A DNA stretch of 64,000 nt from an uncultured Planctomycetales bacterium (GCA_964520655.1 CAZFNI010000007.1:6398-70397), one strand, 5' to 3'. Positions 19,789 through 51,598 are shown, counted from the first letter of the stretch. Made by a program: numbers and translations. Notes: generated from the sequence alone by a model not told the origin.

Positions 19789-19805
19789 GCCATCGCGAAA
19801 GAGTG

Positions 19806-19835
19806 TTGCCATGGCCTTGTGTTGTCTGCTAGTAT
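19806..19835 (+). promoter_or_regulatory. Candidate sigma70-type internal promoter (TTGCCA, 18-nt spacer, TAGTAT)
   Basis: It lies in the largest gap of the array (19789-19867) and is read directly from the sequence. No experimental support. Confidence 0.3.
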
Positions 19836-19867
19836 GGGGGCCTGTAATTACCCACTAAAGATATATC

Positions 19868-23203: not shown

Positions 23204-23234
23204 TTCAAGCAAATTTTTTGAGAATAGGTATAAT
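23204..23234 (+). promoter_or_regulatory. Candidate promoter with a perfect TATAAT box (23229-23234) only 6 nt upstream of ATG 23241, suggesting a leaderless transcript
   Basis: The sequence reads TTCAAG(19 nt)TATAATgcccctATG. There is no Shine-Dalgarno sequence before the ATG. The -35 element is weak. Confidence 0.3.
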
Positions 23235-23240
23235 GCCCCT

Positions 23241-24662: not shown

Positions 24663-24675
24663 GCCGGAGGTTGTG

Positions 24676-25452: not shown

Positions 25453-25459
25453 TCTTCCT

Positions 25460-27340: not shown

Positions 27341-27410
27341 CCATAACGGAATAGGTGAATTTTCTGTTAAATCATGATATTCTGACGTCATTGCATTGAA
27401 AGAACGCGCG

Positions 27411-27752: not shown

Positions 27753-29065
27753 GTTGTGACGTTCTAGTCATTGGTTCCGGCCCCGGCGGCGCTATGACAG
27801 CCATGCTGTTGGCCCAGGCGGGACGGGATGTGATCCTTTTGGAAGAGGGGCAGCATATCCCCATCGACCAGGTTCCTGCGTATTCCCTGGATGAGATGGA
27901 CCTTAAATACCGCCACGGCGGGTTAACGGTCAGCGCGGGAGATCCCAAGGTCACTTACATAGAAGGCCGCTGCGTCGGAGGGGCAAGCGAGATCAATGCC
28001 GGGCTTTATCATCGCCCGCTGCCAAAAACATTGGATGCCTGGGGGGCGGAGCACCGTTTAAAGGGATTTTCTTCCCAGCTGATGGAGCCGTTCTTTTTAG
28101 CCAATGAAGACATGATCAAGGTGGTGCCGTTTCAGGGTGAATTGTCGATCGCTTCGCGTTTGATCCGCGACGGGGCTCAAAAGCTGGGCTGGCAGTCGGG
28201 GGAGGTGCCCAGGTTATGGGATTACGCGAAGGGATGTAAGTGCTCGATGAGCGAAGCGGTGATCCCGCAATTTATCAAAGCCAAAGGACGGCTGATCACG
28301 CAGGCCAGGGCGGGACGTTTGCATGTGTCCAATAGAAAAGCCTTTCAGGTCAATACCCGTTTATTGAATATCCGTTTTAACCATGTGTTTATCTGCGGCG
28401 GCGCGATACAAACGCCGCTCTTGCTGCGGCGAAGCGGCATCAAGAAGAATATCGGCAATAATTTACGTATGCATCCGGCGGTGCGGGCGGTCGTTGAATT
28501 TGACCGCGATATCAATGATCCAAGTGAGGGCGTGCCGGTCTATCAGGTCAGTGAATTCAAACCGGAGATCTCATTAGGGGGTTCTTACAGCGGGCTGCCG
28601 CATTTAGGGCTGTGGCTCTCCGGGCGAAGCGACCTAAAAGCGCATTTAAAGGCCTGGAAGCGACACGCGATCTTTTACGCCCTGATCATGGCTTCTACGC
28701 CTGGGAAGGTGCGTGCTATTCCTTTTGTCGACGAGCCGATTGTCAGCCTGCCCATGGTCAAGGCTGATTGGGAGCTGATGGAGCAGGGGCTTTCGCGTCT
28801 GGAGGAATTATTCAAGGCGGCAGGGGCGGTGCATATCCACCGCAGCATCAAGCCCGAACTATCAACGATACATTTGTTCTGTTCCTGTCCCATGGGGGAG
28901 GACTCACCGACCGCTGCGGTCGATTCTTACGGCCGGCTGCACGGGTATGACAATATTTATTTGAACGACGCCAGCATTCTACCGGCAACGCCCGGGGTCA
29001 ATCCCCAGGCAACCATCATGGCGCTGGCCCGCCGCAACGTGGAGCATTTTATAAAATACTCATGA
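27734..29065 (+). CDS. GMC-family FAD-dependent oxidoreductase (short form, 443 aa)
   Basis: N-terminal CDVLVIGSGPGGAMTAMLLAQAGRDVILLEEG. The C-terminal GMC signature region is VDSYGRLHGYDNIYLNDASILPATPGVNPQATIMALARRN. Confidence 0.8.
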   Translation: MPKDRLSCDVLVIGSGPGGAMTAMLLAQAGRDVILLEEGQHIPIDQVPAYSLDEMDLKYRHGGLTVSAGDPKVTYIEGRCVGGASEINAGLYHRPLPKTLDAWGAEHRLKGFSSQLMEPFFLANEDMIKVVPFQGELSIASRLIRDGAQKLGWQSGEVPRLWDYAKGCKCSMSEAVIPQFIKAKGRLITQARAGRLHVSNRKAFQVNTRLLNIRFNHVFICGGAIQTPLLLRRSGIKKNIGNNLRMHPAVRAVVEFDRDINDPSEGVPVYQVSEFKPEISLGGSYSGLPHLGLWLSGRSDLKAHLKAWKRHAIFYALIMASTPGKVRAIPFVDEPIVSLPMVKADWELMEQGLSRLEELFKAAGAVHIHRSIKPELSTIHLFCSCPMGEDSPTAAVDSYGRLHGYDNIYLNDASILPATPGVNPQATIMALARRNVEHFIKYS

Positions 29066-31116
29066 GCCGATTATCTTTGAGCCCCGCGTACCGCAATGTC
29101 CTGATGCTGGCCGTTCTAAGCTTCCTGCAGGCGCTGCAGCTGCTGATCTGGGCGGCTGCTGCAAGTTCCCTGATCCCCTATGCCAGGACCGATTTTGTCA
29201 CAAAGATCTTTCCGGTCTATTTGCCCGAGGTAAGGCCTGAGCGGGAGATGCTCTTGTTCCGTTTGTTTGTGGTGATGGCCGTCGCTATCATGGCGGCGTG
29301 GATCGTCCGGCACAAGGATGAGGTCGACTCCCGAGAACTTCGACGGGAATATGGCGCTTATACGGTCTTTACGGCAACGGTCATTGTCATACAGCTGATC
29401 TTTATTTTTAAACTTATTGTTTTTGGGGGCCCCCTGTGGGCCAGAGTGATGATGTGGCTTTGCATGGTCGGAGCTTTGTTGGCGCATGTGTTCTGGCCGG
29501 AACTGCGGAAAATATTATCTTCCTGGCAGGGGAAGATCATATCCAGCGATGATGTTGGATCCCCGCATTTGTGGGATGCTTCATTTATCCTTTTGCTGTT
29601 TGTTCTGCTATATCCAAATAATCTAGATAATGTACTGGGCCGCATATTTGTTCATGATCAGTTCTATCATTTAGACAGCATGCTCATGATGCCGGGCTTC
29701 GCGCATCTCAAAGGTCTGCTGTTAAACCGGGATATCACCAGCGAATACAGCGCCGGGTTGCCTGTAATGCTGTCCAATGTGCTGAATTTCTTCCATGGGT
29801 TTGATTATCCGGGGGCGGTAAGGCTGTTGATCATGTTGAACCTGGTTTATTACGCGGCGTTGTACCTGTTCATTGCCCGCTGGCTTAATTCCAGGCCTTT
29901 GGGGGTGTTGGGCACATTGCTTGCGGTCAAATGGCAAATGTTCCATTGGGGGGTGGCGCCATTGGTCTGGCAATTCCCCAGTGCCACCGCTTTAAGGCAT
30001 TTGCCGGACATTGTGTTTTATTTTACTTTCTGGCAGTATTTAAGAACACTTAAGACGCGCTGGTTGATCATTGCGGTGATCTCTGTCGGTGTCACGTTGT
30101 TCTGGATGATGGATGTCGGGGTCTATTTGCTGGCAGCGCTTTGCGCGGGCATGCTTTTATTCAATTGGCGGCAGGCTTTCGCAGCGGCGGCTCTGGCGCT
30201 TGGCACGGCTTTTGTGTTGCTGTGGGCTGGGCAGCCCCAGGCGGTTGTGTCGGCGGATTATTGGAAGAACCAGTTTGAATTCGCCTCATTGTTCCTCAAC
30301 GGGTGGGGGGCATTACCGATGACGGAAGGGTTAAAGGATAAGCAGTTCTTTGCTTTTATCATTGGATTTGTTATTCCCGTCGGTTATGCCGCCAGTTTAG
30401 TCTACAGCGCCCAACGTTTCTGGGCAGATAAAAACCGAAAAGACCATTTGTTCGTCGTTGTGTTGTGCCTGTACGGCCTTGGCCTGTACCATTATTTTAT
30501 CCATCGTTCTGGTGTCACCAGTTATTACGCGGTGTGTGTTCCGCTTGTTTTGCTTGTGTGTTTTTGGGGGCAGCAGCTGTTGTCCCGGCTGCCTGCCGAT
30601 AAGCGGCGGCTGGCGGCGGTCGTGGCCGCAAGCCTGATGCTGCCGATCTTGGCTACGAGCTATCTGTTCACGTATTATCCCAATATCCTTAATCTTGCCG
30701 GCAATGACTGGAAGATCGAGGCCAAATATTATCGCGAACACTTTGACCTGAAAAAAGATGCGCAAATGATCGCGTCATTGTCCGCTCCTGGCGAGAGGGT
30801 GGCCATCATCAGTAGTTTTGAGACCAGGATCCTGATGCAGGCCGACCGTCCGCCGCTGTTTTACTATTCACCCATGGTCGAATCTTCCTTGATGGATGAT
30901 CCGCGATCACGGTTGACCTATCTACACACTCACAAACGGCTGCGGGAGACGATCGCGCAGATCGAGGAACGCAGGCCGTCGTATGTTTTTATCGAGGCAA
31001 AGATGCTCAATGTGCAGGGCCAGGAAGCATTGTCAGGTCTGTTAAGCGCGGTGATGAACAATTACACACCGTTTAAACAAGGGGTTTACTTGATCGCCTT
31101 TAAGAGGACGAAATGA
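29062..31116 (+). CDS. Family C1: uncharacterised large polytopic membrane protein with a C-terminal soluble domain (684 aa)
   Basis: ATGA overlap with the upstream gene. Loop motif RIFVHDQFYHLDSMLMMPG....DITSEYSAGLP, then AVKWQMFHWGV. The C-terminal domain is VAIISSFETRILMQADRPPLFYYSPM....RPSYVFIEAK......NYTPFKQGVYLIAFKR. Confidence 0.6.
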   Translation: MSRLSLSPAYRNVLMLAVLSFLQALQLLIWAAAASSLIPYARTDFVTKIFPVYLPEVRPEREMLLFRLFVVMAVAIMAAWIVRHKDEVDSRELRREYGAYTVFTATVIVIQLIFIFKLIVFGGPLWARVMMWLCMVGALLAHVFWPELRKILSSWQGKIISSDDVGSPHLWDASFILLLFVLLYPNNLDNVLGRIFVHDQFYHLDSMLMMPGFAHLKGLLLNRDITSEYSAGLPVMLSNVLNFFHGFDYPGAVRLLIMLNLVYYAALYLFIARWLNSRPLGVLGTLLAVKWQMFHWGVAPLVWQFPSATALRHLPDIVFYFTFWQYLRTLKTRWLIIAVISVGVTLFWMMDVGVYLLAALCAGMLLFNWRQAFAAAALALGTAFVLLWAGQPQAVVSADYWKNQFEFASLFLNGWGALPMTEGLKDKQFFAFIIGFVIPVGYAASLVYSAQRFWADKNRKDHLFVVVLCLYGLGLYHYFIHRSGVTSYYAVCVPLVLLVCFWGQQLLSRLPADKRRLAAVVAASLMLPILATSYLFTYYPNILNLAGNDWKIEAKYYREHFDLKKDAQMIASLSAPGERVAIISSFETRILMQADRPPLFYYSPMVESSLMDDPRSRLTYLHTHKRLRETIAQIEERRPSYVFIEAKMLNVQGQEALSGLLSAVMNNYTPFKQGVYLIAFKRTK

Positions 31117-33701
31117 AGAACCAGTGCGCAAGACGTGATATTGGCATCGCCTTTATCCTGACCATGGCGGCTTATGCGCTGCTTTATCCTGATCAGTTCG
31201 TGTTCGGCAGCCGCCGTTTTTTGCAAGGGCAGGATACGGAGATACATTTAGAGAGCCTATTTACGCTGGTATCCCATGTTTTCCAGGGCGGGGTGCAGCT
31301 GTACGACCGTTTCGACGGGTTCAATAATGTATACACCCTCATGACCGCTGGCTTATATTCAGTTCTGGATATGATCTTAGCCGGCATATATGTATTGTTA
31401 AGCCCTTTAAGCGATCATTCCGGAAGTTTCCTGCACCAGGTCTATTCCGTCGGGTATTACGCCGGAGCTGCGGTGATACGCATCATGGGGGGCTATTTAT
31501 TGCTGGGCAAGTTCACGCGAAACAGGGCGGCCCGCGTCATCGCGCTGGTGCTGGCGAATCTGTTCCTCTCGTCGTTTTTGATCAACCGCGGCATGCAGGT
31601 CAATAACTTGTATAGTTATTTGCCGCTGCTTTTATATTTTGTCCTTAATTTTTTTGAGAACTTTGATCTAAAAGATGCGTGTCTCGCCGCGCTGGTCATG
31701 GCATTGGCGGTGAGCAATTCGCCATTCTTGGGCTTAAGTTATTTTTATTTGATCGTCCATTTTTTTATGATCAGCTGTGCAGCCGTCTATGCGTATTTTG
31801 CGTTAAAAGATGGCATCAAAGAAAGAACGCTAAGCTGGGAACCAGCTCAATGGGGATATGCCGCCGCTGTTGCAGCGGTCATTGTTATCCTGATCCTGCC
31901 GTACGCGCTGATGCAGTCGGATTTCAAAAATGATTTCTTCATCGCTAATTCAGGTGTTAACGGCACCGTTGGCCGTCTAAAGGCGGCGGGGGTGGACGCG
32001 TATTTTTCTTTCCCCGGTCGTTCCTATGTGAACCCTGGTGAGTTCTTGACCAAAAGTGTTGATTTCACGCTGACCCGATGGGGATCGACATGGATGTTCT
32101 TAGGTGTCGGTATGCTCTTTCTGATCTTAAGCGGACTGGTGCTGTCCCGTCAGAGGTTAAAGGGAGTGATCGTTTGCCTGACGGTCTTTGTGCTGAGCTT
32201 AAATATTCCAGCCAGCAAGGACAGTGTGCCCGGCTTTGCCCACTGGATCAATGTGTTGACAAATCCTTTCCATTTTTTGATCCGCAGCGTCCATATGTCG
32301 ACGCTGTTATGGTATCTCACCTTGACGCCGTTAGTTGCGCTGGGGATAGAGGCGTTGACCGCTTTGGCTGCTGGCCGCCGCGAGGCGGTCCATGCCGGTC
32401 GTCTTTATACATTCCTGGGATTCTTTGCCGGATCGTGTGTGCTGACAGCGTGTTTATCGCCGGGGCGGGTGCAGGGATATGTGCTGCTGCAGGGGGCGCT
32501 TATTGTCGCGACCATGCTTTTACTCTCCACACAGAAGAAGAAAATGAAATGGGCGGCCGCGCTGCTGGGGATCATTTTGATCGCCGGAGAGCTGGCAGCT
32601 CTTAAGAATTACGTGGACGAAGACCTGGATGTGCAGGTGCATTTAAAGCCGCAGGTTTACAGCGGCGTGCGTTCTGCTGAACCAATTTTATTAGATCATC
32701 AAAACCCCAAGGTCTTTCCCAACCGGGCGTATTATAAGAATAGCGCGCAACCCGTCTTTCCGCCGGCCTATACCTATCAGAACACTTACGGCGCCTATTA
32801 CAGTCATTATCCATTGATGGAGCGTTTTTTGCGTCCTCCTTCGCTGTATGAACCAAGGCCGCTGGTATTTAAAGGTTTCGCCCAAGATGTCGCGAACGCG
32901 GCGTATTTGCAGAAAGTCGGCCTGATGATGTTCTTTGTGCCGTATGCCATGGATGATTCGCGGGTGCGCATGGAAGACTTGTTGTCCGCGGGGCTTAATG
33001 GGCAGGTGGTGCTATTGCCCGCGGGTTCGCCTGGGATGGTTCCGCCCGATCAGGCGATCGTACCCCAGCCGATGCCAGTGGTCAGGACCCAGGAATTCGC
33101 ATTAGATCCCAAAAAAGCCAAACGTATACAGAAGGGGACTAATATCGAGTGGCATTTGACGCTTCCAGGCGGCTTCCCTTCTTATGTGACATCGACGGTG
33201 TTCACTCAAGATCAAGATGATCTTCAGCTATTGATGGGAGAGAGGGCATTAACACAGGTTCAAGGCGGGTTGGTTGTTCCCTACAGCTTTGATGTACAGA
33301 ATATCAAGGAGGGCAAGGCGGTGGTCCTGCTGCCGCAAGGCATTGATCCAGCATCGTCAGGGCTTAAGCTGGTGTACAAAAGATCAGACGGTATTAAGGA
33401 GATCTGGAAGAATACCCATGATGCCTGGGGTTTGACGATCGAAGCTCCCGTGGATGGATGGGTGGTGTTCCACTATCCGTATGATCCAAAATGGAAGATC
33501 ATTGTCGACGGAAGAACAGAAGCGCTTTACAAGGCGGATCATTATTATTGCGCTGTGCGTGTATCCAAAGGCGAACATCGGCTTTTACTCCAGTATTGGC
33601 CGGGGACGATCATACGGCCGTTGTTATTGTTATCAGCACTGCTTAGCATCGGTGTATTTTTTTATGTATTTAAAGAAGGGTATCGGCGTGAGTGTCCATA
33701 G
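31113..33701 (+). CDS. Family B3: YfhO-like polytopic membrane protein (862 aa)
   Basis: ATGA overlap. Motifs: FQGGVQLYDRFDGFNNVYTLMTAGLYS...LLSPL and AHWINVLTNPFHFLIRSVHMSTLLWY. The C-terminus is PYDPKWKIIVDGRTEALYKADHYYCAVRVSKGEHRLLLQYWP followed by a terminal TM helix. Confidence 0.6.
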   Translation: MKNQCARRDIGIAFILTMAAYALLYPDQFVFGSRRFLQGQDTEIHLESLFTLVSHVFQGGVQLYDRFDGFNNVYTLMTAGLYSVLDMILAGIYVLLSPLSDHSGSFLHQVYSVGYYAGAAVIRIMGGYLLLGKFTRNRAARVIALVLANLFLSSFLINRGMQVNNLYSYLPLLLYFVLNFFENFDLKDACLAALVMALAVSNSPFLGLSYFYLIVHFFMISCAAVYAYFALKDGIKERTLSWEPAQWGYAAAVAAVIVILILPYALMQSDFKNDFFIANSGVNGTVGRLKAAGVDAYFSFPGRSYVNPGEFLTKSVDFTLTRWGSTWMFLGVGMLFLILSGLVLSRQRLKGVIVCLTVFVLSLNIPASKDSVPGFAHWINVLTNPFHFLIRSVHMSTLLWYLTLTPLVALGIEALTALAAGRREAVHAGRLYTFLGFFAGSCVLTACLSPGRVQGYVLLQGALIVATMLLLSTQKKKMKWAAALLGIILIAGELAALKNYVDEDLDVQVHLKPQVYSGVRSAEPILLDHQNPKVFPNRAYYKNSAQPVFPPAYTYQNTYGAYYSHYPLMERFLRPPSLYEPRPLVFKGFAQDVANAAYLQKVGLMMFFVPYAMDDSRVRMEDLLSAGLNGQVVLLPAGSPGMVPPDQAIVPQPMPVVRTQEFALDPKKAKRIQKGTNIEWHLTLPGGFPSYVTSTVFTQDQDDLQLLMGERALTQVQGGLVVPYSFDVQNIKEGKAVVLLPQGIDPASSGLKLVYKRSDGIKEIWKNTHDAWGLTIEAPVDGWVVFHYPYDPKWKIIVDGRTEALYKADHYYCAVRVSKGEHRLLLQYWPGTIIRPLLLLSALLSIGVFFYVFKEGYRRECP

Positions 33702-42372: not shown

Positions 42373-44860
42373 AACCATCACATGGGGACCGGCGCAATGG
42401 ATGTTCGCCTGTATTATGGGGGCTTTTGTTCTTTTGGCGCTATTCTTCCCGACGCTGTTGATCACGCGGAAAGTCAGTTTCATCTACATGCAGGACTATC
42501 TCAATGATTACAAAGCTGTCCATCTGCTTATTCAATTCTTTTATCAGAAAGGCATACAGCTGTGGGATTTTTTCAGCCAGATGCCGCACACCTATTTCTT
42601 TGCGACATTCGGGACATTCAAGGTCGCCAATTTATTGACCGCTTTGGCCTATGTAGGCACATCAGGCTTCTTTTATGATCAAGCCAAATTGCTGCACGAT
42701 GTCTTCGCCTGGGTCTATGTTCCGGCGCTGCTGACCTTAAGGGCGTGCGGCATGGTGATCGTTTTGAGGCTGCTTGGATTTGGCAAAGTTTTCGCGGCGG
42801 CCTTTGGGCTGGCTGGTGCATTATTGTGGGCAAAGCCGGCGATCGTGATCGGCACGTTCTATCAAAGCTATACACCATTGATCATGCTGCTTATTTTGGC
42901 GTGGGTGACATTTCAACAGGGCCGTTATCTGCTGCTCTTGGCATTGATGCTGGCGCACGCCTTCACGCAAGGCATGGTGCATGCGTGCTATTTGTATTTA
43001 GGGATACACGGGTTGCTATTGTCGGCAGTCATCTATCAGTGTTTCCTTGGGAAGAAGGAGGCGTGGCGATTTTCATTCAAAGAAGCGGCGATCGCGATCG
43101 TTCTGATCGGTTTGATGCTCTGGCCGTACGCGGCCATGATCAAATTATCTTTTGCTGACATCATGTTCGCGCCGGGGGAGAGCCGGCTTAATGGATTTTT
43201 CGATCTGAAGTATTATTTCAATGCCATGAAGATCGACCAGGTGCGCGTGGGGACATTTGTCGCAGACAGCCTGAGGTTCGATGATATCAGCGGGATCAAA
43301 TATTTCTTTGGTCTTGGTTTCTTCTGGTGCGCGCTCACCGGATGGGTCATGGCGGCGGACAGGCGTAAATGGATCTTTGCCGGCGGTCTGATATTGTTAT
43401 GGGCTGTCAACACGCCGCGTTTCGGGTTTAACCCGGGGATGATCGGCCATTGGATCAATGTGCTGACCAATCCCATGAGCACCATGGTCCGTTCCTATGA
43501 AATGGCTGCCTGCGCGGCCGTGGGCTATATGCTCCTGCCGTTGTGCGCCTGGGGGATGATCTGGTTGTGGGAACACGACGGAGTGAAGGTCAGTGCGTAT
43601 AAAATGAAAATATGGTGGCTGTTGACGGCATGTCTGCTGGCGTTAGCGTTTGGGATCAATGTGCCGGTTCAGGTGCGTTTATATACGATCATTCTGAGCG
43701 TATTGATCGCGGGAGCGCTTTGGATCAAGACATACACGATGTTTAAAGTCGGCCGTAAAAAATATTCTGGCTGGTCATTCAGGGGATTGCTGATCATCAT
43801 GATCGCGTTAGACGCGTTCTTGAGCATCGTGCAGATCAACCGGTTCTTTGCCGCGGGAGAGGTCGCAACACCGCCGCTGGCGGGATCGGCAAGACATTAT
43901 GGTCTTAACCTTGATCATCAAAACCCGAGAGTGATGGGCTTTCCCTATAATGCGGATATGATCGATACAGGCGCGACGTCGCATGTGTGGAGTTTGCGGG
44001 ATATCTCGCCGGGCTACAGCCGTGTGATCAACCGCTTTATCGCTTTTGAAAAGCCAGGTGACCATTTCCCCCGTCATCAGGCTTATGCGGGATGGTATCA
44101 GAATGAACGCGTGATGGAATATGTTAAGCGTTATCCGGCATTGGCTTATTTTGTCCCGTCAGATGGAAAAAATGAGGCGTTGATCATCTCAGGGGAGCGG
44201 CCGGGAGATCTTGGCGGGCAATTTGTACAAGAGAGCCTGTTGCAAAGTCCGATCGTGGTAAATTCACAGGCCCATGGTTATTGGAGCATGTCATTTGCGC
44301 TTAGCGATCCATTTGCCCATATTGTAAGCAATCAAGTGTCCGCGTTCCCGGCGGCCAGAGTTTTTGTTGAGACAGATGGCCAACAGCATGAATTGGAAGC
44401 CTCCCAGGGACGATTATTGGGGTCTGGGATGTTTGATATCAATAATATCTATCAGGGCAAGATGCTGGTATCATTGCCCAGAGGAGTTTTGCCACAGGCG
44501 GTTAAGGTGCATGTATGGCGCTACCAGCAGGAGACTGGGATCGTCGGAGTTGATTCCTTCACACATGACCGTTTGAGCGCGGCATTCGCCGCGCCGCACA
44601 ATGGATGGGCGGTATGGCACATCCCGTATGATACGAAATTTGTGATCATGGAAGATGGACGCAAGGTCGATTACAGACGCACGACTGCCGGCTTTATCCG
44701 CTGGCCGATCAAAGCCGGACGGCACAAGGTGGTGATCGATTATTGGCCACAGGGCTGGTGGCTGAGATGGGGGCTTGTGTGCTCGACGGTGGTGTCCATG
44801 GGGTGTTTGGTGTACATCCTTAACCTGTTATGGGTAAGATCGTTCCGATATGAAAAATAA
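42359..44860 (+). CDS. Family B5: YfhO-like polytopic membrane protein (833 aa, most divergent member)
   Basis: Motifs: YQKGIQLWDFFSQMPHTYFFATFG and GHWINVLTNPMSTMVRSYEMAAC. The C-terminus is PYDTKFVIMEDGRKVDYRRTTAGFIRWPIKAGRHKVVIDYWP followed by a terminal TM helix. 14-nt overlap with the upstream gene. Confidence 0.55.
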   Translation: MSRIKTITWGPAQWMFACIMGAFVLLALFFPTLLITRKVSFIYMQDYLNDYKAVHLLIQFFYQKGIQLWDFFSQMPHTYFFATFGTFKVANLLTALAYVGTSGFFYDQAKLLHDVFAWVYVPALLTLRACGMVIVLRLLGFGKVFAAAFGLAGALLWAKPAIVIGTFYQSYTPLIMLLILAWVTFQQGRYLLLLALMLAHAFTQGMVHACYLYLGIHGLLLSAVIYQCFLGKKEAWRFSFKEAAIAIVLIGLMLWPYAAMIKLSFADIMFAPGESRLNGFFDLKYYFNAMKIDQVRVGTFVADSLRFDDISGIKYFFGLGFFWCALTGWVMAADRRKWIFAGGLILLWAVNTPRFGFNPGMIGHWINVLTNPMSTMVRSYEMAACAAVGYMLLPLCAWGMIWLWEHDGVKVSAYKMKIWWLLTACLLALAFGINVPVQVRLYTIILSVLIAGALWIKTYTMFKVGRKKYSGWSFRGLLIIMIALDAFLSIVQINRFFAAGEVATPPLAGSARHYGLNLDHQNPRVMGFPYNADMIDTGATSHVWSLRDISPGYSRVINRFIAFEKPGDHFPRHQAYAGWYQNERVMEYVKRYPALAYFVPSDGKNEALIISGERPGDLGGQFVQESLLQSPIVVNSQAHGYWSMSFALSDPFAHIVSNQVSAFPAARVFVETDGQQHELEASQGRLLGSGMFDINNIYQGKMLVSLPRGVLPQAVKVHVWRYQQETGIVGVDSFTHDRLSAAFAAPHNGWAVWHIPYDTKFVIMEDGRKVDYRRTTAGFIRWPIKAGRHKVVIDYWPQGWWLRWGLVCSTVVSMGCLVYILNLLWVRSFRYEK

Positions 44861-45323
44861 ATCTTTTGATGTCTTTGATCCGGTCTTTACCGGTTTATTA
44901 GCTGCCGCGGCGATCCTGTGCGCGATGGAAATGCTCATTATCGCCGGTGTTGTTTTGTTCTATATCCCCTTTACGCCTGACCCATCCCTGCAGGATATAT
45001 TCTTCCATTACCGCAAAGGATATGTTCCCGAGCAGGAATTATTATTGTACGGCGTTGGGATCGCGATGGCGGTGGTCTTCTTTGTCGGCGCTGCGATCGT
45101 TTTTGCGCGGCGCGTTTCGGATGTTTTGTTTCAAAGGTCATTGATACGTTATGCGGTGGTGCATACGGCCGTTGTGATTTCGATGACGGCATGTGTTTTT
45201 AAATTGATCGTCACACCGTCGGATGGCATCGCGTGGGCATGTCTTTATACAATGTTGGGCGTTTCTTTGGGACTTAACATATTTTGGAGCGAGATCGATC
45301 AATGGTTTGGGCGGACCTTTTAG
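44850..45323 (+). CDS. Family C4, N-terminal fragment (157 aa) of a split or frameshifted gene
   Basis: It aligns with the first ~150 aa of other family C proteins (..IPFTPDPSLQDIFFHYRKGYVPEQELLLYGVGIAMAVVFF.. and ..NIFWSEI..). It ends at TAG 45321-45323, exactly where the paralogs continue. Confidence 0.5.
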   Translation: MKNKSFDVFDPVFTGLLAAAAILCAMEMLIIAGVVLFYIPFTPDPSLQDIFFHYRKGYVPEQELLLYGVGIAMAVVFFVGAAIVFARRVSDVLFQRSLIRYAVVHTAVVISMTACVFKLIVTPSDGIAWACLYTMLGVSLGLNIFWSEIDQWFGRTF

Positions 45324-47068
45324 CGGTTCTCGGGATCTTTCTGGTGCTGTTCATCCCTGACCCGTCGTCGACGGTGGCGCAGCTGTTCTTGGGCGACTAT
45401 TTCCATGACTGGGATGTGGTCTTCATGGGGCCGGTCTACGGATTGTTCTGCGATCTTGTTCCCAACATCGATGTCAATACGACCTATGGGTTTGGATTAA
45501 GTCTGCTCATCAAGTGGGGGATGCAGCTTTTGGGCGGATTTGATTATACGCATGCGCTTGTCGTATTAGTCTGGCTGGGAATTATTTATTTTGTCGCCTG
45601 GTATTTTTTGCTGCGCCGGCTGTTTGAGCATCGGCTGCTGGCCTTTATCGCCATTTTGCTTGGCATGCGTTTTCAGATGTTTGTTTCGATCCTGATCCCC
45701 ATCGTCTGGAACGATATCCAATGCTCAGTGCTGCGTTTTTATTTTGACGCGGCCTTTTTCTGGAGTTTATACCTGCATCAGAACAAAGGTGGTCAGCGTT
45801 ATCTTTGGCTCATGGGGTTATCTGCGGCGCTGGGGATCTTCCATATGCCGACCATGGGGATATTTTTAGCGATGACCATGGTCGTTTATCTGGCCTTCTT
45901 GACCCTTGATGGATATTTTAAGGAAGGGATGAAATCCTTGGGCTCAGCGGCCTCCAATGCCCGGCCTTTGATCTTTATCCCGGTCGTCGTCTTCATCTTG
46001 TATTATGCCATTGTTAGGGACCATATTTTCACCGGAACATTCTGGGCCAACACCGCCGGATTCGCGTCCTATTTTGCTAAAGGATTTTTCTATAGCCCGA
46101 TGCTTGACCCGCTTAAACGGGGCAATTATCTGATGGTCATCGGCGGGATCTTGATCCCGCTGTGGTATCTGTTCTGCCTGTTCTTTTTCGGCTGGCGCTA
46201 TCTTACCCCTGCCAGAAGATCCAGGGATATATGGATCGTTCTGCTGTCCGTGTATGGTCTGGGGATATTCACGTATTTTGTCGGGATGTCCCATAAATAT
46301 TCGACGGTGTCTCTGCCGGCGACATTTGTTTCCTTTCTTGTCCTTGATGAGATCTTGGCCCGCGCCTCGCGGCACTGGAAATTCCGGATCACGTGGACTT
46401 TGCTTGCGGTGAGTATTTATGCTCTTGCGGTCGAGCCTATGTTCAAGGCCTACCCCAACTGGCTTAATATTTCCCGCGATCCGGTCGTTGACGAGCGCGT
46501 GACCATGAAAACTCCCAATGGAAAACCGTATTTTCAGCAGCTGGCCATCGATTTCCCAGAGTGGATCAAGGTCCCCTTCAATTCGCTGGGGGAGACGGAT
46601 GAGAAGTTCAAATATGAGAAAGATTTCGTCAACAGCGACGCGTTAAAGTCCTATTACCGTCTGGAGACCGCGTTTGTCGAGGACGCGGGCTTGATCCGTC
46701 GTTTGACCAGCCCCGGCGACAGGGTGGCCTTATTATCCAGTTTTGAGGTGATGATCCTTTCTAAAGCACAGCGTAAACCACTGTTCTATTATTTCCCATT
46801 GCTTAATTCCCATCCCATGCGCATGCGAAATTTCGTGGTCACGACCATATTTAGCTACCCGCAATTGCGCCAGAGCATTGACCAGTTAAACGCGGCCATG
46901 CCGCCCTATATTTTTATGGAGAAGGTGTTCTTGACGGAGCAGGTCCACCCCTGGTATTTTGAACAATTCGAGGATTTGATCGCGCTGATCCGCTGGATCA
47001 AATATTATTATACGCCGGTCGAACAGGGCAAATACTTGGTGGCCATGAAAAGGAAGACCGATGGTTGA
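45302..47068 (+). CDS. Family C4, remainder (about 588 aa) of a split or frameshifted gene
   Basis: A different frame is open from 45284, with ATG at 45302 (MVWADLLAVLGIFLVLFIPDP..). It carries the loop motif QLFLGDYFHDWDVVFMGP....DVNTTYGFGL, then GMRFQMF. The C-terminus is VALLSSFEVMILSKAQRKPLFYYFPL....MPPYIFMEKV....YYTPVEQGKYLVAMKR. Confidence 0.55.
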   Translation: MVWADLLAVLGIFLVLFIPDPSSTVAQLFLGDYFHDWDVVFMGPVYGLFCDLVPNIDVNTTYGFGLSLLIKWGMQLLGGFDYTHALVVLVWLGIIYFVAWYFLLRRLFEHRLLAFIAILLGMRFQMFVSILIPIVWNDIQCSVLRFYFDAAFFWSLYLHQNKGGQRYLWLMGLSAALGIFHMPTMGIFLAMTMVVYLAFLTLDGYFKEGMKSLGSAASNARPLIFIPVVVFILYYAIVRDHIFTGTFWANTAGFASYFAKGFFYSPMLDPLKRGNYLMVIGGILIPLWYLFCLFFFGWRYLTPARRSRDIWIVLLSVYGLGIFTYFVGMSHKYSTVSLPATFVSFLVLDEILARASRHWKFRITWTLLAVSIYALAVEPMFKAYPNWLNISRDPVVDERVTMKTPNGKPYFQQLAIDFPEWIKVPFNSLGETDEKFKYEKDFVNSDALKSYYRLETAFVEDAGLIRRLTSPGDRVALLSSFEVMILSKAQRKPLFYYFPLLNSHPMRMRNFVVTTIFSYPQLRQSIDQLNAAMPPYIFMEKVFLTEQVHPWYFEQFEDLIALIRWIKYYYTPVEQGKYLVAMKRKTDG

Positions 47069-48308
47069 ACGAAAGATCATCAGCATCATTACAGCCTTGG
47101 TACTCGTCGAGTCCTTGCAGGCGCTTGCGTTGATCGCGCATATTTATAGTTTTATCCCCATCTCCCTCAAAGGCCCGATCCTGCCAGGGCTTGAGCCGGA
47201 AAGGGAGAGTTTTCTCTACATCATTTTCCTGGCCATGGTTTTTGTGCTGACGATCGTGCTGACGGCGCTGTTATATAAGCCGCTTAAGTCCGCTGCTTTT
47301 CAACAGAGAGCATTGAAGTTCGTATATTTGGAAACGCTCTGGATGGGACTGATGCTGTTTGCCTTCTTTAAATGGGTAAGCTACCAGCATCCTTTCTATA
47401 ATATTCTGCCGCTGGAGAACGGACGATGGGTATATCCGTTCTTTTACGCAGTTGCCTTTTTAAGCTTTTTGACAAAGATATTCTGGGCGGAGATCGTCAG
47501 GTTTTGGGAGAGCTGGGAACAGGGGCGGGGCCGCAGACTGGTGACAAAAGAAAAACCATTGGCTGTTTATGCCGCCGGGATAATGTTTGCGGCCGCATTG
47601 TTGTACCCCAATGTGCCGCTTGCCTCGCAGGTCATTGCCTCCTGGAGCCGTTTTGCGCCATGGCAGAATTTCTGGCTGACGCGTTTTTTTCTTGAACGGG
47701 GATTCTCTCCTGAGGCGATCATTGCGTGTTTATACGGTCTTAATATGATCGTCCTGGGCGTGATCTTTGTCGGAGCGCATCGCTACTTGAAGAATTCCTG
47801 GCTGGCCTTTGGTGTCCTCATGCTGACGATCCAAATGACGTTTTTCCATTACGGCACATCACCGGTGTGCTGGAATGCTCCGCAGAATACGCTCATCAAT
47901 TTCGGCTGGGACTTTGGCTTTATGAAAGACGCCGCGCATTTGCCCATGTTCGCTGCCTTGCGTGTGCGCCAGTTTCTTTCATTCTTTATGGGATATGCCA
48001 TCGCGGTGTTGTATGTCTTCTCTATATTATATTGCTGGGGCAAAGATAGAATGGCGGTGATCTTAAGTGGCCTTGGCTTACTCTTATATACCCGCTATAT
48101 CGCCCATGCCGATGTATTTGCTTTTGGGGCGGCATCCTTCCCGGCAATGATCTTGTCTGCGCACTGGTTGAGAATTGTAATAAGGCGATTTTTTCCCAAA
48201 CAGGAAAATGCTGTTTATATCGCGCTTGCCGCAACGTCAGTTTTCATGCTGTTAACCAACCGGGTATTTGTGACCTACCCGCATTTTTGGATGAACAATG
48301 TTCCATAA
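47061..48308 (+). CDS. Family C5: truncated or degenerate member (415 aa) with the membrane domain only
   Basis: The N-terminus is colinear with family C (..FIPISLKGPILPGLEPERESFLYIIFLAMVFVL.., ..KIFWAEI.., ..TIQMTFFHYGTSPVCW..). It lacks the (E/D)Q.HH.D loop segment. It stops at ..FVTYPHFWMNNVP, which is where the C-terminal soluble domain begins in the paralogs. Confidence 0.5.
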   Translation: MVERKIISIITALVLVESLQALALIAHIYSFIPISLKGPILPGLEPERESFLYIIFLAMVFVLTIVLTALLYKPLKSAAFQQRALKFVYLETLWMGLMLFAFFKWVSYQHPFYNILPLENGRWVYPFFYAVAFLSFLTKIFWAEIVRFWESWEQGRGRRLVTKEKPLAVYAAGIMFAAALLYPNVPLASQVIASWSRFAPWQNFWLTRFFLERGFSPEAIIACLYGLNMIVLGVIFVGAHRYLKNSWLAFGVLMLTIQMTFFHYGTSPVCWNAPQNTLINFGWDFGFMKDAAHLPMFAALRVRQFLSFFMGYAIAVLYVFSILYCWGKDRMAVILSGLGLLLYTRYIAHADVFAFGAASFPAMILSAHWLRIVIRRFFPKQENAVYIALAATSVFMLLTNRVFVTYPHFWMNNVP

Positions 48309-50445
48309 AGAAGATCTTAAGATCAGCGTATTGAGTATCTGCAGCGCGATGCAAGTGGCCGTGCTCGTGGCCCAGGCACTGTCAGCGTTGAATGCGGCCT
48401 CTGGGGTTTATGACGGCATTGTCTATGTCGCTTTTTTGGTCAGTAGTGTCTTTGTGTTCGCTCTGTTAAAAAAGCAGCGGGACTTAGCTTGGAATGTGTG
48501 GATGGAAATGCTGGTGACGTTTCTGTTGCTAAGCGCTGTCTTTAAAAGCACCATCTATGACAATAGTCCGTTTCTGGCCAATGCCGCTGTGCTTTCGCTG
48601 CTTACGATCGCGGCTGCGATAAAAGTATTCTCGCTTGAGATATCGTCGGGATTGTTAAGGCTATCCGCGAAAGCGCGTGTAATGTCGTCATTTGGGCCGA
48701 TCGCTTCCTGTGCCGCCATCGCCGCATTGGTCTATGTGCCCAATCTAAATGCGGTGCTGGCGGAGGTCTTTATCGGCGAGCAGGCGCATCATTTGGACTT
48801 TTTTGTGATGTCTCCGGGATGGTCATGTTTTAACGGCGGTAAGCCCTACGTGGATGTGATCTCTCAATACGGGGTGGGCATACCGGTTATTTTTGCTAAC
48901 TTAAGCCGCATTCTTGGCGGGTTTGATTATTTGACCTTCCTTCAGGTGAACATGGCTTTCGGTATCTTGTATTTTATATTGTTCTTTTGGGTGACGCGCG
49001 CATGGCTTGGCAGCACGATGCTTGGGTTTGCCGCATTCCTGGTGTGTTTTCGTCTGCAAATGTTCCATTACGGGGTCAGCCCCCTGTGCTGGATCTATCC
49101 ATCCTCAACACCTATCCGTTTTGGGCTGGACATCCTCTGGTTGTGGCTGTTGTGGCGCCATCTGCAGACCGGCAGGGGGATCTTTCTGATCTTAGCCGCT
49201 TTGTACAGCGGGTTTGCTGTTTATTTCATGACATCGACGGGTATTTTTATCATGGTCACGTTCTACGCATATTTAGCAGGGCTGCTGGTACTGCAAGGAC
49301 TCCGCAAAGAAAAAATATTATCGCCCAGGCTTATGGCAGCGGCTGCTATCATCCCCGTGGTATCGGCCTTTGTATTCTTTTGGATCACCCTGGGTGGACA
49401 TGTTGTCAGTCAAACGTTCTGGCGGAATGTCGTCGAGTATATGTCATATTTCTCCAACGGACGCGGCGCTTTGCCTATCTTTGAAAGTTTGAAATACCGC
49501 AACTATTGGGTCGCGCTGATGGCTCTGGCTGTTCCTTTATTGTATGTGGCGACCGCCGTCAGCGTCGGGATCGCGTTATGGAAAGAAAAAGTCGATCGCA
49601 AATATTTGTTTGTTGTCACGATCGCGGTCTATGGGTTGGTCAATTATCAATATTTCGTTGTGCGTTCGGCGATGACCAGTTATTACAGCAATGCGGTGCC
49701 TTTCGTGCTACTGTGCGCGTTCTGGGCTGACATTGCCGTCAAACATTACATGCCGGCGAAAAAGGGGAAGATCTACGGACTGTGCGCCATTCTGGCCTTC
49801 TATGCACTGGCCACCAATCACAATTACATCAGCTATCCCAATCTGTTCAATTTCAGCCGTAACCCTTTGGTTGACATCACCGTGGCCCAGCGTTTCCCTG
49901 ACCGGCAGGGCTATTTCCATCATTTGGTCAAACATATCAAGGAAGAGGATAAGGTCGCCTTTAATGCGGCGGGCGACGGGGACGAGCATTTGATGACGGA
50001 GGATAGCTTTAAGACGGATAAGGAGTTGATCGATTTTGTTAAAAGCGAGAATGATTTCAGCCTCGATGCCGCGCTGATCGATTCTCTTGTGTCTTCCAAA
50101 GAACCCACGGCGGTCTTAAGCAGTTTTGAAACGAAGATCCTGATCCAGGCCAAGCGGGCGCCGTTCTTTTACCATACACCGCTTATCACCTCCCAGCCGA
50201 TGCGGGTGCGCTACTTTCCGGCGGATGCCGCGCACAGTCCAAGTTTTTTGGCAGACACACTGCGCCAGCTGGAGGATAAGAAACCGGCTTATGTATTTAT
50301 CGAGAATGTCTTTTTGCAGGAGATCATTCCGGCAAGCTACAGGGAGTCAAACGCAAATATATTGACAATCATCGCCTATATCAGGCAGAATTATACCCCT
50401 TTTAAGAGGGGACAGTATTTGACAGCAATGAAGAGACATGAATAA
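48298..50445 (+). CDS. Family C6: uncharacterised large polytopic membrane protein (715 aa); last gene of the array
   Basis: Motifs: EVFIGEQAHHLDFFVMSPG....YVDVISQYGVGIP and CFRLQMFHYGV. The C-terminus is TAVLSSFETKILIQAKRAPFFYHTPL....KPAYVFIENV....NYTPFKRGQYLTAMKR. Confidence 0.6.
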   Translation: MFHKEDLKISVLSICSAMQVAVLVAQALSALNAASGVYDGIVYVAFLVSSVFVFALLKKQRDLAWNVWMEMLVTFLLLSAVFKSTIYDNSPFLANAAVLSLLTIAAAIKVFSLEISSGLLRLSAKARVMSSFGPIASCAAIAALVYVPNLNAVLAEVFIGEQAHHLDFFVMSPGWSCFNGGKPYVDVISQYGVGIPVIFANLSRILGGFDYLTFLQVNMAFGILYFILFFWVTRAWLGSTMLGFAAFLVCFRLQMFHYGVSPLCWIYPSSTPIRFGLDILWLWLLWRHLQTGRGIFLILAALYSGFAVYFMTSTGIFIMVTFYAYLAGLLVLQGLRKEKILSPRLMAAAAIIPVVSAFVFFWITLGGHVVSQTFWRNVVEYMSYFSNGRGALPIFESLKYRNYWVALMALAVPLLYVATAVSVGIALWKEKVDRKYLFVVTIAVYGLVNYQYFVVRSAMTSYYSNAVPFVLLCAFWADIAVKHYMPAKKGKIYGLCAILAFYALATNHNYISYPNLFNFSRNPLVDITVAQRFPDRQGYFHHLVKHIKEEDKVAFNAAGDGDEHLMTEDSFKTDKELIDFVKSENDFSLDAALIDSLVSSKEPTAVLSSFETKILIQAKRAPFFYHTPLITSQPMRVRYFPADAAHSPSFLADTLRQLEDKKPAYVFIENVFLQEIIPASYRESNANILTIIAYIRQNYTPFKRGQYLTAMKRHE

Positions 50446-50875: not shown

Positions 50876-51598
50876 TTAGCTGCGGTATTGACCCTTAATG
50901 AGATTCCATTTGATGCGGACAAGGTCGCGCAGGGATGTCAGGGCGTCGCGCAGGGCTCGGACCTGGGAGCTGTTGTGATGGTTCCAGACAACCGGCAGCT
51001 CTCCAATCCTAAAATTTTTGGCTATGGCAATGCCGATAATTTCCGTGTCATAGGCCCACTGGTCGATCTCCTGACGGGAGAAGATGTCTTTTGAAGCGGC
51101 AGCGGTGAACATTTTAAATCCGCAGGTGAAATCCTGGATGTTACGCCCGACGCAGATCTTGGAAAGCAGCAGGAAGAATTTACCCAAAATTTCCCGGTGC
51201 AGCGGCTGTCGGATCTTTTGCGCATGAAAGTGTGATTTGCGTTCCCCAAGCAGAACGTCGTATTGTCCGGTGCGCATCGCCGCAAGAAAATCATCCACAG
51301 CATCCAGAGAGGTGGAGAGGTCGACGTCCATGAACAGATGGAAACGTCCTCGGGCTTGAAGCATCCCCAAACGTACGGCATGGCCTTTGCCGGCATTGCG
51401 TTCATAGCTTAAGATCTTAAACGTATCCGCCGGCAATTGGCGCATGCATTCTAAAGTATTGTCCCTCGAGCCGTCATTGACCAAAATGATCTCGTGGGTG
51501 ACCTTAAGCGATCTAAGCTTTTGTTGGATCAACAGCGCGTTGCGCTGGATGTCGGCGGCTTCATTGAATGCCGGCAGGATGACAGATAGTTCGATCAT
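50876..51598 (-). CDS. GT2 glycosyltransferase, polyprenyl/dolichyl-phosphate sugar synthase-like (DPM1/Alg5/GtrB-CsbB catalytic-domain type, no TM tail)
   Basis: Motifs: LSVILPAFNEAADI, HEIILVNDGSRDNT, NAGKGHAVRLGM, FMDVDLS (the DxD motif) and FTCGFKMF. 240 aa. Convergent with the tRNA-binding gene. Confidence 0.8.
   Translation of the reverse strand: MIELSVILPAFNEAADIQRNALLIQQKLRSLKVTHEIILVNDGSRDNTLECMRQLPADTFKILSYERNAGKGHAVRLGMLQARGRFHLFMDVDLSTSLDAVDDFLAAMRTGQYDVLLGERKSHFHAQKIRQPLHREILGKFFLLLSKICVGRNIQDFTCGFKMFTAAASKDIFSRQEIDQWAYDTEIIGIAIAKNFRIGELPVVWNHHNSSQVRALRDALTSLRDLVRIKWNLIKGQYRS

Follow-up and report, generated by a model that had tools for sequence, protein, structure and literature searches.

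An unclassified family of polytopic membrane proteins with a predicted GT-C fold, encoded in an array with YfhO-like genes

The window analysed here (the whole stretch of DNA, 64,000 nucleotides) encodes a family of polytopic membrane proteins, family C, whose genes alternate in part with YfhO-like genes (family B). An earlier note, made from the sequence alone, had read this alternation as a strict pairing and had proposed a two-component enzyme or translocon. The question raised by the locus is what the C proteins are and whether they act with a B partner or singly. The ORFs from 29062 to 50445 are all on the + strand, in the order C1, B1, C2, B2, methyltransferase, C3, B3, C4N, C4, C' and C6. 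These and the associated features are as follows.

29062..31116, + strand: C1, full-length family-C protein, 684 aa (ORF), predicted GT-C-fold glycosyltransferase
31113..33701, + strand: B1, YfhO-like protein, 862 aa (Pfam PF09586)
33688..35904, + strand: C2, full-length family-C protein, 738 aa counted from GTG (ORF, BLASTP, motifs)
35905..38502, + strand: B2, YfhO-like protein, 865 aa (Pfam YfhO, E 3.5e-12)
38499..39902, + strand: SAM-dependent methyltransferase, 467 aa (Methyltransf_11, E 1e-21)
39895..42372, + strand: C3, full-length family-C protein, 825 aa, TM4 being followed by an insertion (alignment, BLASTP, motifs)
42359..44860, + strand: B3, divergent YfhO-like protein, 833 aa (Pfam YfhO, E 4.8e-8)
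44850..45323, + strand: C4N, 4-TM N-terminal module of a C protein as its own gene, 157 aa (C HMM positions 10-140)
45302..47068, + strand: C4, GT-C core and C-terminal domain, 588 aa (C HMM positions 159-743)
47061..48308, + strand: C', shortened family-C paralogue, 415 aa (alignment)
48298..50445, + strand: C6, full-length family-C protein, 715 aa, chosen for modelling
48733..48927, + strand: C6 residues 146-210, putative first periplasmic loop of the GT-C core (secondary structure, positive-inside analysis)
50017..50442, + strand: C6 residues 574-715, C-terminal α/β domain, putatively periplasmic (SSFE, RxPxFY, PxYxFxE, GxYL)
50876..51598, - strand: GT2 glycosyltransferase, 240 aa, candidate polyprenyl-phosphate sugar synthase (PDB sequence matches)
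within 17507..23196, + strand: two further YfhO-like genes, 17507-19570 and 20713-23196 (Pfam YfhO, E 2e-10 each)

The three C-B units had been correctly located, with C-to-B overlaps of 4, 0 and 14 nt. However, the ORF coordinates indicate that all junctions across 29062-50445 overlap or abut, with overlaps of 4 nt (GMC/C1), 14 nt (B1/C2), 4 nt (B2/methyltransferase), 8 nt (methyltransferase/C3), 11 nt (B3/C4N), 22 nt (C4N/C4), 8 nt (C4/C') and 11 nt (C'/C6). Since the overlaps run along the whole operon, those between C and B are not specific to these pairs. The start codon of C2 is GTG, with an in-frame ATG 24 nt upstream. Elsewhere in the window, an FkbM methyltransferase is flanked by the two further YfhO-like genes, and a pair composed of a FAD oxidoreductase, with amine-oxidase / UDP-galactopyranose-mutase-like matches, and an SDR is found at 23082-25452. 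Besides the five YfhO-like genes of family B and the six genes of family C, four paralogues constitute an unclassified family A of putative GT-C proteins.

Family C is represented in the window by six paralogous genes, one split in two and one truncated, and the gene positions and shared motifs described in the earlier note were all recovered. Pairs of full-length C proteins display 26-35% identity (BLASTP E 1e-56 to 1e-129; 1e-56 to 1e-87 for C1 against the other C proteins), and weaker similarity was obtained with C' (E 1e-8) and C4N (E 4e-6); by these values the paralogy is far beyond chance. The loop motif occurs at the five nucleotide positions already reported, within 1-2 nt of frame, in the forms FVHDQFYHLD, FVGEQFHHND, FGEHYYHFD, FLGDYFHDWD and FIGEQAHHLD. 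It reads DQFYHLD in C1, which also carries the C-terminal motif, and GDYFHDWD in C4. The motifs D(V/I)xSxYG and (K/R)(W/F/L)Q(M/V)F and the C-terminal motifs were found in the C proteins as well. No C protein matched Pfam at E up to 0.01, STT3, PMT, DPY19, Wzy_C and O-antigen ligase included, nor NCBIfam, and the C profile retrieved nothing at E up to 10 from all PDB sequences. In particular, C matches neither the family HMMs nor the sequences of solved members of the PMT/PMT_2/ArnT-like (GT39/GT83), STT3 (GT66) and DPY19 families. The family comprises 1530 clusters at 50% identity, and its named relatives, from Omnitrophota and one Acidimicrobiales, are all annotated as "hypothetical protein". 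On these searches, family C is a genuine family that is recognised by none of the sequence libraries interrogated (Pfam, NCBIfam, PDB sequences).

The earlier statement that C matches no known family holds for these libraries, but the predicted fold places C in the GT-C superfamily. The structure prediction and fold comparison, proposed earlier as a check, were carried out on C6 and separately on its C-terminal domain, and gave for C6 an AlphaFold2 model with a pLDDT of 89.5 and a pTM of 0.88. Searched with Foldseek against the PDB, this model has exclusively GT-C proteins as its top 34 matches (best E 5e-6), AftA, AftB, AftD, Emb and PimE being among the matches, and its polytopic domain matches solved GT-C enzymes in fold, with a sequence identity of 7-11% in the structural alignments. 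GT-C enzymes are polytopic proteins with a small extracytoplasmic domain, usually after TM1, and catalyse transfer from lipid-linked donors (PMC11127046). The positions of the helices and of the K/R-rich loops in C6 suggest 15 TM helices with the N-terminus inside and the C-terminus outside, and point to an architecture of a separable 4-TM N-terminal module followed by an 11-TM GT-C core, TM1-4 being a presumed add-on. In the model, the loop of residues 146-210 would be the counterpart of the catalytic EL1 of GT-C enzymes; it contains two short helices with E161, H164/H165, D167 and D186-VISQYG, so that the conserved motifs (D/E)x3Hx1D and DVxSQYG would lie in the first periplasmic loop of the core. 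Among 157 representatives of the family, an acidic residue is conserved at position 161 in 96% of sequences, H165 in 91%, D167 in 92% and D186 in 86%. A nearly invariant Arg/Asp pair, R274 (99%) and D278 (98%), is proposed after TM7. These residues are the candidate catalytic residues of C, and the C-terminal α/β domain would be periplasmic. From the model, we consider it probable that family C represents a sequence family of the GT-C fold superfamily that had not been classified before, and that its members are enzymes acting singly with lipid-linked sugars. The locus would then be very rich in GT-C enzymes, a glycan locus with a dense array of stand-alone sugar-adding enzymes.

The acceptor could be a protein: the C proteins would then be oligosaccharyltransferase-like or PMT/DPY19-like enzymes acting on secreted proteins, for example Cys/Ser/Thr/Asn-rich repeat proteins, and not on a polysaccharide or glycolipid. 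The top match of the C-terminal domain of C6, although weak, is the C-terminal domain of AglB. In addition, two secreted Cys-rich repeat proteins, rich in Cys/Ser/Thr/Asn, are encoded at the head of the locus (533-4887), and by eye each displays a WxxW...CGxG stretch, resembling thrombospondin type-1 repeats, and many N-x-S/T sites. However, Pfam TSP_1 has no match in these two proteins, even at E up to 10, and among relatives the only such protein observed near a C array is one homologue 6 kb downstream in the related locus L007. The motif WWDxG, searched as a regular expression, is present in none of the six C proteins of the window and in none of 204 family members, and the Pfam families STT3, PMT and DPY19 are without match, as stated above. 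The polysaccharide-acting enzymes AftA, AftB and ArnT score nearly equally in the fold search with C6, so the fold does not discriminate between types of acceptor. Taken together, the restriction of family C to protein acceptors appears improbable.

The proposal that C and the neighbouring YfhO-like B form an obligate two-component enzyme or translocon (a glycosyltransferase with a polymerase, flippase or acceptor-binding subunit) relies on the three units of the window, and heterodimeric GT-C enzymes do exist, the Pmt1-Pmt2 and EmbA-EmbB complexes being among the fold matches. The pairing was examined in 28 related loci, which were selected by their C6 orthologues and include flanks no longer than 10 kb, so that more distant B genes would be missed. 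Within these limits, 11 of the 102 C genes are directly followed by a B gene and 74 by another C gene, and 14 of the 28 loci show no B. When B is present, it is directly downstream of C in 11 of 15 observable cases. The C2-B2 adjacency is found again in L003, where a C2 orthologue precedes a B2 orthologue, and apparently in L007, where a C fragment lies directly upstream of the B2 orthologue (69% identical), in the position of C2. In contrast, B3 is missing at the syntenic position in L001/L007, a close relative, where C3 (54% identical in L007) and C4N are adjacent. Distant members of family C are single genes in unrelated contexts with no B nearby; one is in a planctomycete-like context and another in a GT4/deacetylase/GT2/Wzx locus, the protein cluster of the latter including the Acidimicrobiales member. 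In the window itself, the two B-like genes at 17507 and 20713 stand without a C partner, and three C units lack a B gene. Neither the strict pairing nor a conserved co-occurrence across genomes, which the earlier note had put forward as a check, is observed: C is common without B.

The B genes are YfhO-like in so far as they score above the Pfam gathering threshold for PF09586 (31.6-46 bits, cut-off 28.5), but the match covers only the last 60-80 residues; for B1, it has an E value of 7.9e-8 (31.6 bits) and is limited to the C-terminal part. B1 is 31-33% identical to B2 and to the gene at 20713 (BLASTP E 1e-112 to 1e-123 for the latter against B1/B2), whereas B3 shares only 22-24% identity with B1 and B2. 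B3 is the outlier of its family and C1, if any, is that of family C, so the paralogue distances do not mirror each other by cassette. No significant sequence similarity joins the two families, since the C proteins have no PF09586 match and hhalign gives a probability of 2.8% for the C profile against the profile of the B proteins of the window. To our knowledge, each of the characterised GT-C enzymes, YfhO included, is the catalytic glycosyltransferase of its own system. YfhO has been assigned to the GT-C fold class, and YfhO enzymes are the GT-C component beside a GT-A enzyme and a flippase, without a second polytopic partner (PMC8035078). With a catalytic GT-C fold predicted for C and published for YfhO, neither protein looks accessory to the other. 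As C has this fold and is widely found without B, the observations named by the earlier note as contrary to its proposal are largely those that were made; an obligate C-B unit is very unlikely, and the alternation is a local gene order in one tightly packed operon.

The array also contains incomplete C genes. The entry 44850/45302 of the earlier note does belong to family C; however, it consists of two ORFs, C4N and C4, that represent one C protein split between TM4 and TM5. C4 is devoid of the N-terminal module and starts one TM helix before the EL1 motif. The split recurs in a MAG of the same species and in a relative with a 67%-identical C6; C4N comprises 154 aa in L001 and 157 aa in L036, whereas in P0082 and others the 4-TM module forms one protein with C. 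In the alignment, C' has neither the EL1 acidic/His loop motif nor the C-terminal domain, and its membrane core is incomplete, so that it is probably non-catalytic; its orthologue in L007 is full-length (53% identical), and P0041 carries a C'-like region joined to a C protein. Compared with a 97.8%-identical strain, pN/pS is 0.30 for C4N, 0.05 for C4, 0.23 for C' and 0.24 for B3, and ranges from 0.05 to 0.30 for all C genes compared (C3, C4N, C4, C' and C6), which are under purifying selection. That C' is conserved despite the loss of the loop motif indicates that non-catalytic derivatives exist in family C, but it is most improbable that the family as a whole consists of non-catalytic GT-C-fold lipid-binding or scaffold subunits (like PIG-U/GAB1 of the GPI transamidase) or of Wzy/WaaL/SEDS-type polymerases or ligases, because in the full-length C proteins acidic, His and Arg residues of the putative periplasmic loops are almost unchanged, as expected of an active site, catalytic GT-C enzymes with lipid-phosphate donors far outscore SEDS proteins in the fold search, no Wzy or WaaL structure is among the top 60 matches, and C belongs to the Wzy, O-antigen ligase, EpsG and SEDS groups neither by family HMM nor by best fold match.

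The best PDB sequence matches of the GT2 at 50876..51598 are GtrB sll0501 (E 1e-13), the Dol-P-Man synthase (9e-11) and ArnC (2e-6); at 240 aa it falls short of the 341 aa of the matched GtrB chain, and its NCBIfam matches (PgfS, PpgS, AglJ and ArnC) are all under the curated cut-offs. It is homologous (E 1e-16) to a GT2 found inside the C arrays of relatives (L006). These similarities make it likely that the GT2 adjoining the array produces the lipid-linked sugar donor of the GT-C enzymes. A second GT2 had been described as part of a GT2/methyltransferase fusion at 38499. The methyltransferase is solid, but the GT2 part is below threshold (E 0.003, 17.8 bits for a cut-off of 23.3); the protein has a C-terminal TM helix and an uncharacterised N-terminal region of ~220 aa that does not resemble the GT2 of relatives.

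The preferred reading, single GT-C enzymes, can be developed into a scheme. The cytoplasmic GtrB/DPMS-like GT2 would put a sugar on polyprenyl phosphate, the lipid-linked sugar would be flipped across the membrane, and every C enzyme, in the same way as the YfhO-like B enzymes, would alone pass the sugar to a periplasmic acceptor; that the donor is lipid-linked and that the enzymes work independently is what we infer from the fold and the gene contexts. The many ancient C paralogues may differ in linkage or acceptor specificity and would jointly assemble or decorate a surface glycan or glycoprotein of complex structure, on which other enzymes of the locus (the methyltransferases, the amidotransferase, the oxidoreductases and the LtaS-like enzyme) could act in turn. 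A broader and more speculative reading, which we hold to be unlikely, places in the window a ~50 kb envelope-glycan assembly line of an Omnitrophota bacterium, composed almost wholly of extracytoplasmic GT-C-type enzymes from three families (A, B and C) without significant mutual sequence similarity; it would be a functional analogue of the mycobacterial arabinan/mannan assembly that evolved independently. Family C would then be modular, with a 4-TM module able to be its own gene or to be duplicated, C' may serve a catalytic C protein as its non-catalytic partner, and the Cys-rich secreted proteins at the head of the locus could be the acceptor. If this last point were true, it would represent a bacterial protein glycosylation of a type described until now mostly in eukaryotes.

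Four known systems can be compared with the locus. The STT3/PglB/AglB enzymes (GT66) differ from C by the WWDxG motif and the Pfam STT3 domain, both missing in C, and resemble it only marginally in the C-terminal domain; nothing in the window pointed to a polyprenyl-diphosphate oligosaccharide pathway, be it an initiating phosphoglycosyltransferase or Wzx. PMT (Pmt1/2/4, GT39) and the GT-CA enzymes (ArnT, AftA/AftB, ALG9, DPY19) have, like C, a polytopic core, their helical first periplasmic loop with conserved acidic residues has a putative counterpart in C, and the GtrB/DPMS-type GT2 near the C array suggests polyprenyl-phosphate monosaccharides as donors. Loop 1 of PMT carries a DE motif, whereas C has (D/E)x3Hx1D. 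Apart from the low identity and the lack of HMM matches noted above, C also differs by four additional N-terminal TM helices, possibly as a separate polypeptide, by another C-terminal domain with no MIR domain, and by tandem arrays of 3-7 paralogues. The YfhO/CsbB/GtcA systems (PMC8035078, PMC5836110) follow the same logic, with a GT-A/GT2 enzyme making the C55-P-sugar and a GT-C enzyme transferring it outside the cytoplasm, and YfhO-like genes are interleaved with the C genes in the same operon. However, C is not homologous to YfhO in sequence, the window yielded no GtrA-type flippase, and these systems have one GT-A per GT-C, whereas C and B genes, up to about 11 in all, stand here beside one or two GT2. 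Finally, the mycobacterial arabinan/mannan assembly (EmbA/B/C, AftA-D, PimE, Mpt) is proposed as a likeness, since there too many GT-C enzymes use polyprenyl-phosphate monosaccharides for one envelope glycan. The FAD oxidoreductase and SDR of the window recall the flavoenzyme and SDR pair DprE1/DprE2, a functional link being speculative and the FAD enzyme differing from the DprE1 type by the matches given above. The phylum (Omnitrophota, PVC group) and the sequence families are other than the mycobacterial ones, and the genes here form one operon-like array, about 50 kb long.

The open reading frames (ORFs) of the array containing the membrane family C and the YfhO-like family B are the following.

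ORFs of the family C array (window coordinates)
29062-31116, + strand, C1
31113-33701, + strand, B1
33688-35904, + strand, C2 (GTG start)
35905-38502, + strand, B2
38499-39902, + strand, methyltransferase (MT)
39895-42372, + strand, C3
42359-44860, + strand, B3
44850-45323, + strand, C4N
45302-47068, + strand, C4
47061-48308, + strand, C'
48298-50445, + strand, C6

The run from C1 to C6 on the + strand is uninterrupted and each junction is overlapping or abutting. The ORF coordinates confirm that each C overlaps the following B by the stated 4, 0 and 14 nt, but all the other junctions overlap too (4-22 nt), so the tight coupling is a trait of the whole operon and is not specific to C-B. The C genes lie at the coordinates listed in the earlier note, except that 44850-45323 and 45302-47068 represent a single C split between the transmembrane (TM) helices TM4 and TM5. 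These genes are true paralogues, the full-length pairs displaying 26-35% identity (BLASTP E 1e-56 to 1e-129), and the loop motif, the sequences D(V/I)xSxYG and (K/R)xQMF and the C-terminal motifs are all present at the expected positions. The GT2 part of the supposed GT2/MT fusion (38499-39902) was compared with the separate GT2 of relatives and displayed no similarity.

The statement that no known family matches C was right at the level of sequence, with single sequences or with the family profile. None of the C proteins of the window matched an entry of Pfam or NCBIfam, single C sequences returned nothing from Pfam, NCBIfam and the PDB sequences, the family profile recovered nothing from the PDB sequences at E <= 10, and family members contain no Pfam domains. 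An exhaustive profile search detected 1530 clusters at 50% identity with E <= 1e-3 and 428 with E <= 1e-30. Most of the 1530 clusters come from uncultured Omnitrophota and bacteria related to them, and a single locus can contain as many as seven C genes in an array. All source-given names of the members are "hypothetical protein" (Omnitrophota and one Acidimicrobiales MAG). The relatives are labelled as Candidatus Omnitrophota or as "uncultured Planctomycetales" MAGs, and the window is 97.8% identical to contig JAYRRC010000016.1 (GCA_041910255.1) across 22 kb. In the library searched, no paper treats Omnitrophota or Omnitrophica together with the GT-C glycosyltransferases, and the glycosyltransferases named in an Omnitrophota genome preprint are only generic LPS/capsule ones. 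Informative fusions were sought by Pfam in ten long C-family proteins with N-terminal extensions and none was found; local HMMs identify these extensions as further N-terminal modules of the C type or as C'-like regions. The same HMMs ruled out B or GT2 as their content.

The AlphaFold2 model of C6, obtained from 34 homologues, is confident (pLDDT 89.5, pTM 0.88). With this model as query, the best 34 Foldseek matches are GT-C without exception, and the predicted fold of C6 is thus unambiguously GT-C by fold comparison. From the helix positions and the positive-inside rule, C6 is predicted to span the membrane with 15 TM helices that run from an inner N-terminus to an outer C-terminus. The predicted loop 146-210 comprises two short helices, the motif (D/E)161-x3-H165-x-D167 and then D186-VISQYG. 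Conservation was counted over 157 representatives (C6 numbering): position 161 is acidic in 96% of sequences, whereas H165, D167 and D186 are conserved in 91%, 92% and 86%, and R274 and D278 in 99% and 98%, respectively. In the textbook layout of GT-C enzymes, the first core TM helix is followed by a small catalytic region outside the cytoplasm, and the donors are lipid-linked (PMC11127046). The placement of the conserved loop in C agrees with this layout, and we infer that the conserved residues would be catalytic.

In the modelled topology, TM1-4 of C is an add-on module. This part is encoded by a separate gene in C4N, and C4 starts one helix ahead of the conserved loop. The split C, with a module gene of 154-157 aa and a core gene of 588 aa, is found in the window (44850-47068), in L036, a 97.8%-identical strain (6502-8720), and in L001, a relative whose C6 is 67% identical (6556-8774); it is kept across strains and species. 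Purifying selection acts on each half (pN/pS 0.30 for C4N and 0.05 for C4). Some complete C proteins, for example P0053, P0075 and P0082, carry a further copy of the 4-TM module fused at their N-terminus. Between the window and L036, the pS of C4N and C4 (0.16-0.18) is 2-5 times higher than that of the flanking genes (0.03-0.08), which may reflect a recombination tract. Judged from the predicted fold, family C is a new unannotated GT-C-fold family with an unusual modular architecture, and the Omnitrophota operon that encodes it is very rich in GT-C enzymes.

The genes surrounding the array are the following.

Features around the family C array (window coordinates)
533-2980 and 3166-4887, + strand, two paralogous proteins of 815 and 573 aa, secreted or anchored
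4930-6756, 6761-8566, 8576-10387 and 12695-14566, + strand, four paralogues of family A
14547-17505, + strand, sulfatase-family protein with a membrane anchor and an LtaS/EptA-like architecture (Pfam Sulfatase E 1e-32); the next protein in this interval is weakly SGNH/GDSL-like
17507 and 20713, + strand, two further YfhO-like genes
23082-29065, + strand, directly upstream of C1: FAD oxidoreductase, SDR, AsnB-type amidotransferase, 118-aa ORF and GMC oxidoreductase
50876-51598, - strand, GT2, most similar to GtrB (sll0501; E 1e-13), Dol-P-Man synthase (9e-11) and ArnC

The NCBIfam matches of this GT2 (PgfS, PpgS, AglJ and ArnC) are all sub-threshold; these enzymes, as well as GtrB and Dol-P-Man synthase, all synthesise polyprenyl-phosphate sugars. 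The C arrays of relatives contain a homologous GT2. We consider it likely that the GT2 would produce a polyprenyl-phosphate sugar, that each C enzyme would pass the sugar on independently at the periplasmic face, and that the multiplicity of C paralogues would correspond to differing linkage or acceptor specificities. No GtrA-type flippase was seen in the window. FkbM and class-I methyltransferases are also encoded on the + strand, and the sulfatase-family and SGNH/GDSL-like pair suggests a phospho-substituent or acyl modification of the glycan. Upstream of C1, the FAD oxidoreductase is amine-oxidase/UDP-galactopyranose-mutase-like, the nearest model of the amidotransferase is the XrtA/PEP-CTERM EPS amidotransferase, and the block may tailor sugars or lipid-linked sugars; the likeness of its FAD and SDR enzymes to DprE1/DprE2 is limited to the flavoenzyme-SDR pairing. 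The locus content fits a surface-glycan locus relying on extracytoplasmic glycosylation. In another related locus (L004), positions 1-5580 ahead of the C array contain genes like those of a nucleotide-activated heptose pathway (SIS_2, HAD, GHMP kinase, NTP_transferase) and a transaldolase-family gene. Downstream of the window locus, a vitamin-K-dependent-carboxylase-like HTTM-domain protein of 485 aa (56005-57462, + strand; Pfam E 5e-9) is kept in L036.

The family A proteins (~600 aa each, 37-44% mutual identity, 11-13 TM helices) display an invariant HPxxDxGRExYxPW after TM1 and a soluble C-terminal domain. Pfam and PDB searches gave no match for family A, and neither its profile nor that of family B found PDB sequences at E <= 10. 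Family A may be another unclassified GT-C family. Homology between A and C was too weak to be claimed (hhalign E 2e-4, probability 45%). Among the A genes, 10380-12743 (+ strand) encodes 787 aa with ~6 TM, a central spermidine-synthase-like domain (Pfam E 4e-5) and ~7 TM.

The acceptors of C could be proteins, possibly the Cys-rich secreted ones at 533-4887, although we regard this as unlikely. These two proteins share 50% identity over their first 250 aa, with extreme Cys, Gly, Ser, Thr and Asn content and CGGSxNTC-type repeats, and a homologue is found downstream in the relative L007 (18255-19508). They are possible glycosylation acceptors. By eye, each contains one thrombospondin type-1-like stretch (WTVWSGCSPACGPLAGTQNRLC; WSGWGACVPSTCGFGTETRTC), which was unconfirmed by Pfam (TSP_1, E <= 10) and by phmmer against the PDB.

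The two-component enzyme or translocon of C and B proposed previously is very improbable. The B genes exceed the Pfam YfhO threshold, and YfhO proteins are GT-C enzymes working with a GT-A enzyme and a flippase (PMC8035078), so that C and B are two families assigned to one enzyme class; hhalign found no relationship between them. HMMs made from the families of the window served to classify the ORFs of 28 non-redundant related loci. Only C6 orthologues, with flanks <= 10 kb, were used to seed these loci, which biases the sample towards the array end. Within this sample, the gene next to a C with a visible downstream neighbour is a B in 11/102 cases, another C in 74/102 and another gene in 17/102, and 14/28 loci show no B. 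These neighbourhoods speak against a functional pair, at least an obligate one. The gene order in L001/L007 is C-B2-MT-C3-C4N-C4-C'-C6, B3 being missing, and in the window itself two B-like genes lack a C partner and three C units lack a B. Distant C members stand alone: the first has planctomycete-like surroundings and the second belongs to a GT4/deacetylase/GT2/Wzx locus, the protein cluster of the second including an Acidimicrobiales member. In neighbour-joining trees, ancient orthologous C sub-families hold their position across genomes while the B genes vary in presence, and the paralogue distances of C and B do not mirror each other: the outlier is B3 among B and, if anything, C1 among C. 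The C array of L004 shows no B within 10 kb.

A likelier two-component relation would involve C', a truncated paralogue that has lost the loop motif, the C-terminal domain and a portion of the core. Its L007 orthologue is full-length and 53% identical, it is under purifying selection (pN/pS 0.23), and P0041 (1175 aa) combines a C'-like region with a complete C, a fusion that hints at a C'-C complex. Since C' is conserved, selected and found fused, a catalytically dead GT-C-derived C' partnering a neighbouring C seems more plausible than a C-B pair.

Family C does not uncover a two-component machine of a new kind. Many major envelope glycans (N- and O-glycoproteins, modified lipid A, mycobacterial arabinan and glycosylated teichoic acids) are assembled or decorated by GT-C enzymes. 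The assignment of C to GT-C gives a concrete, testable annotation to hundreds of "hypothetical proteins" and suggests that these ultra-small bacteria, presumed to depend on hosts, carry a surface glycan that relies on GT-C enzymes to an unusual degree. New GT-C families continue to be established, GT136 in 2024 being one example (PMC11127046), and family C would represent a large unannotated addition to them, with a separable N-terminal module and conserved truncated paralogues.
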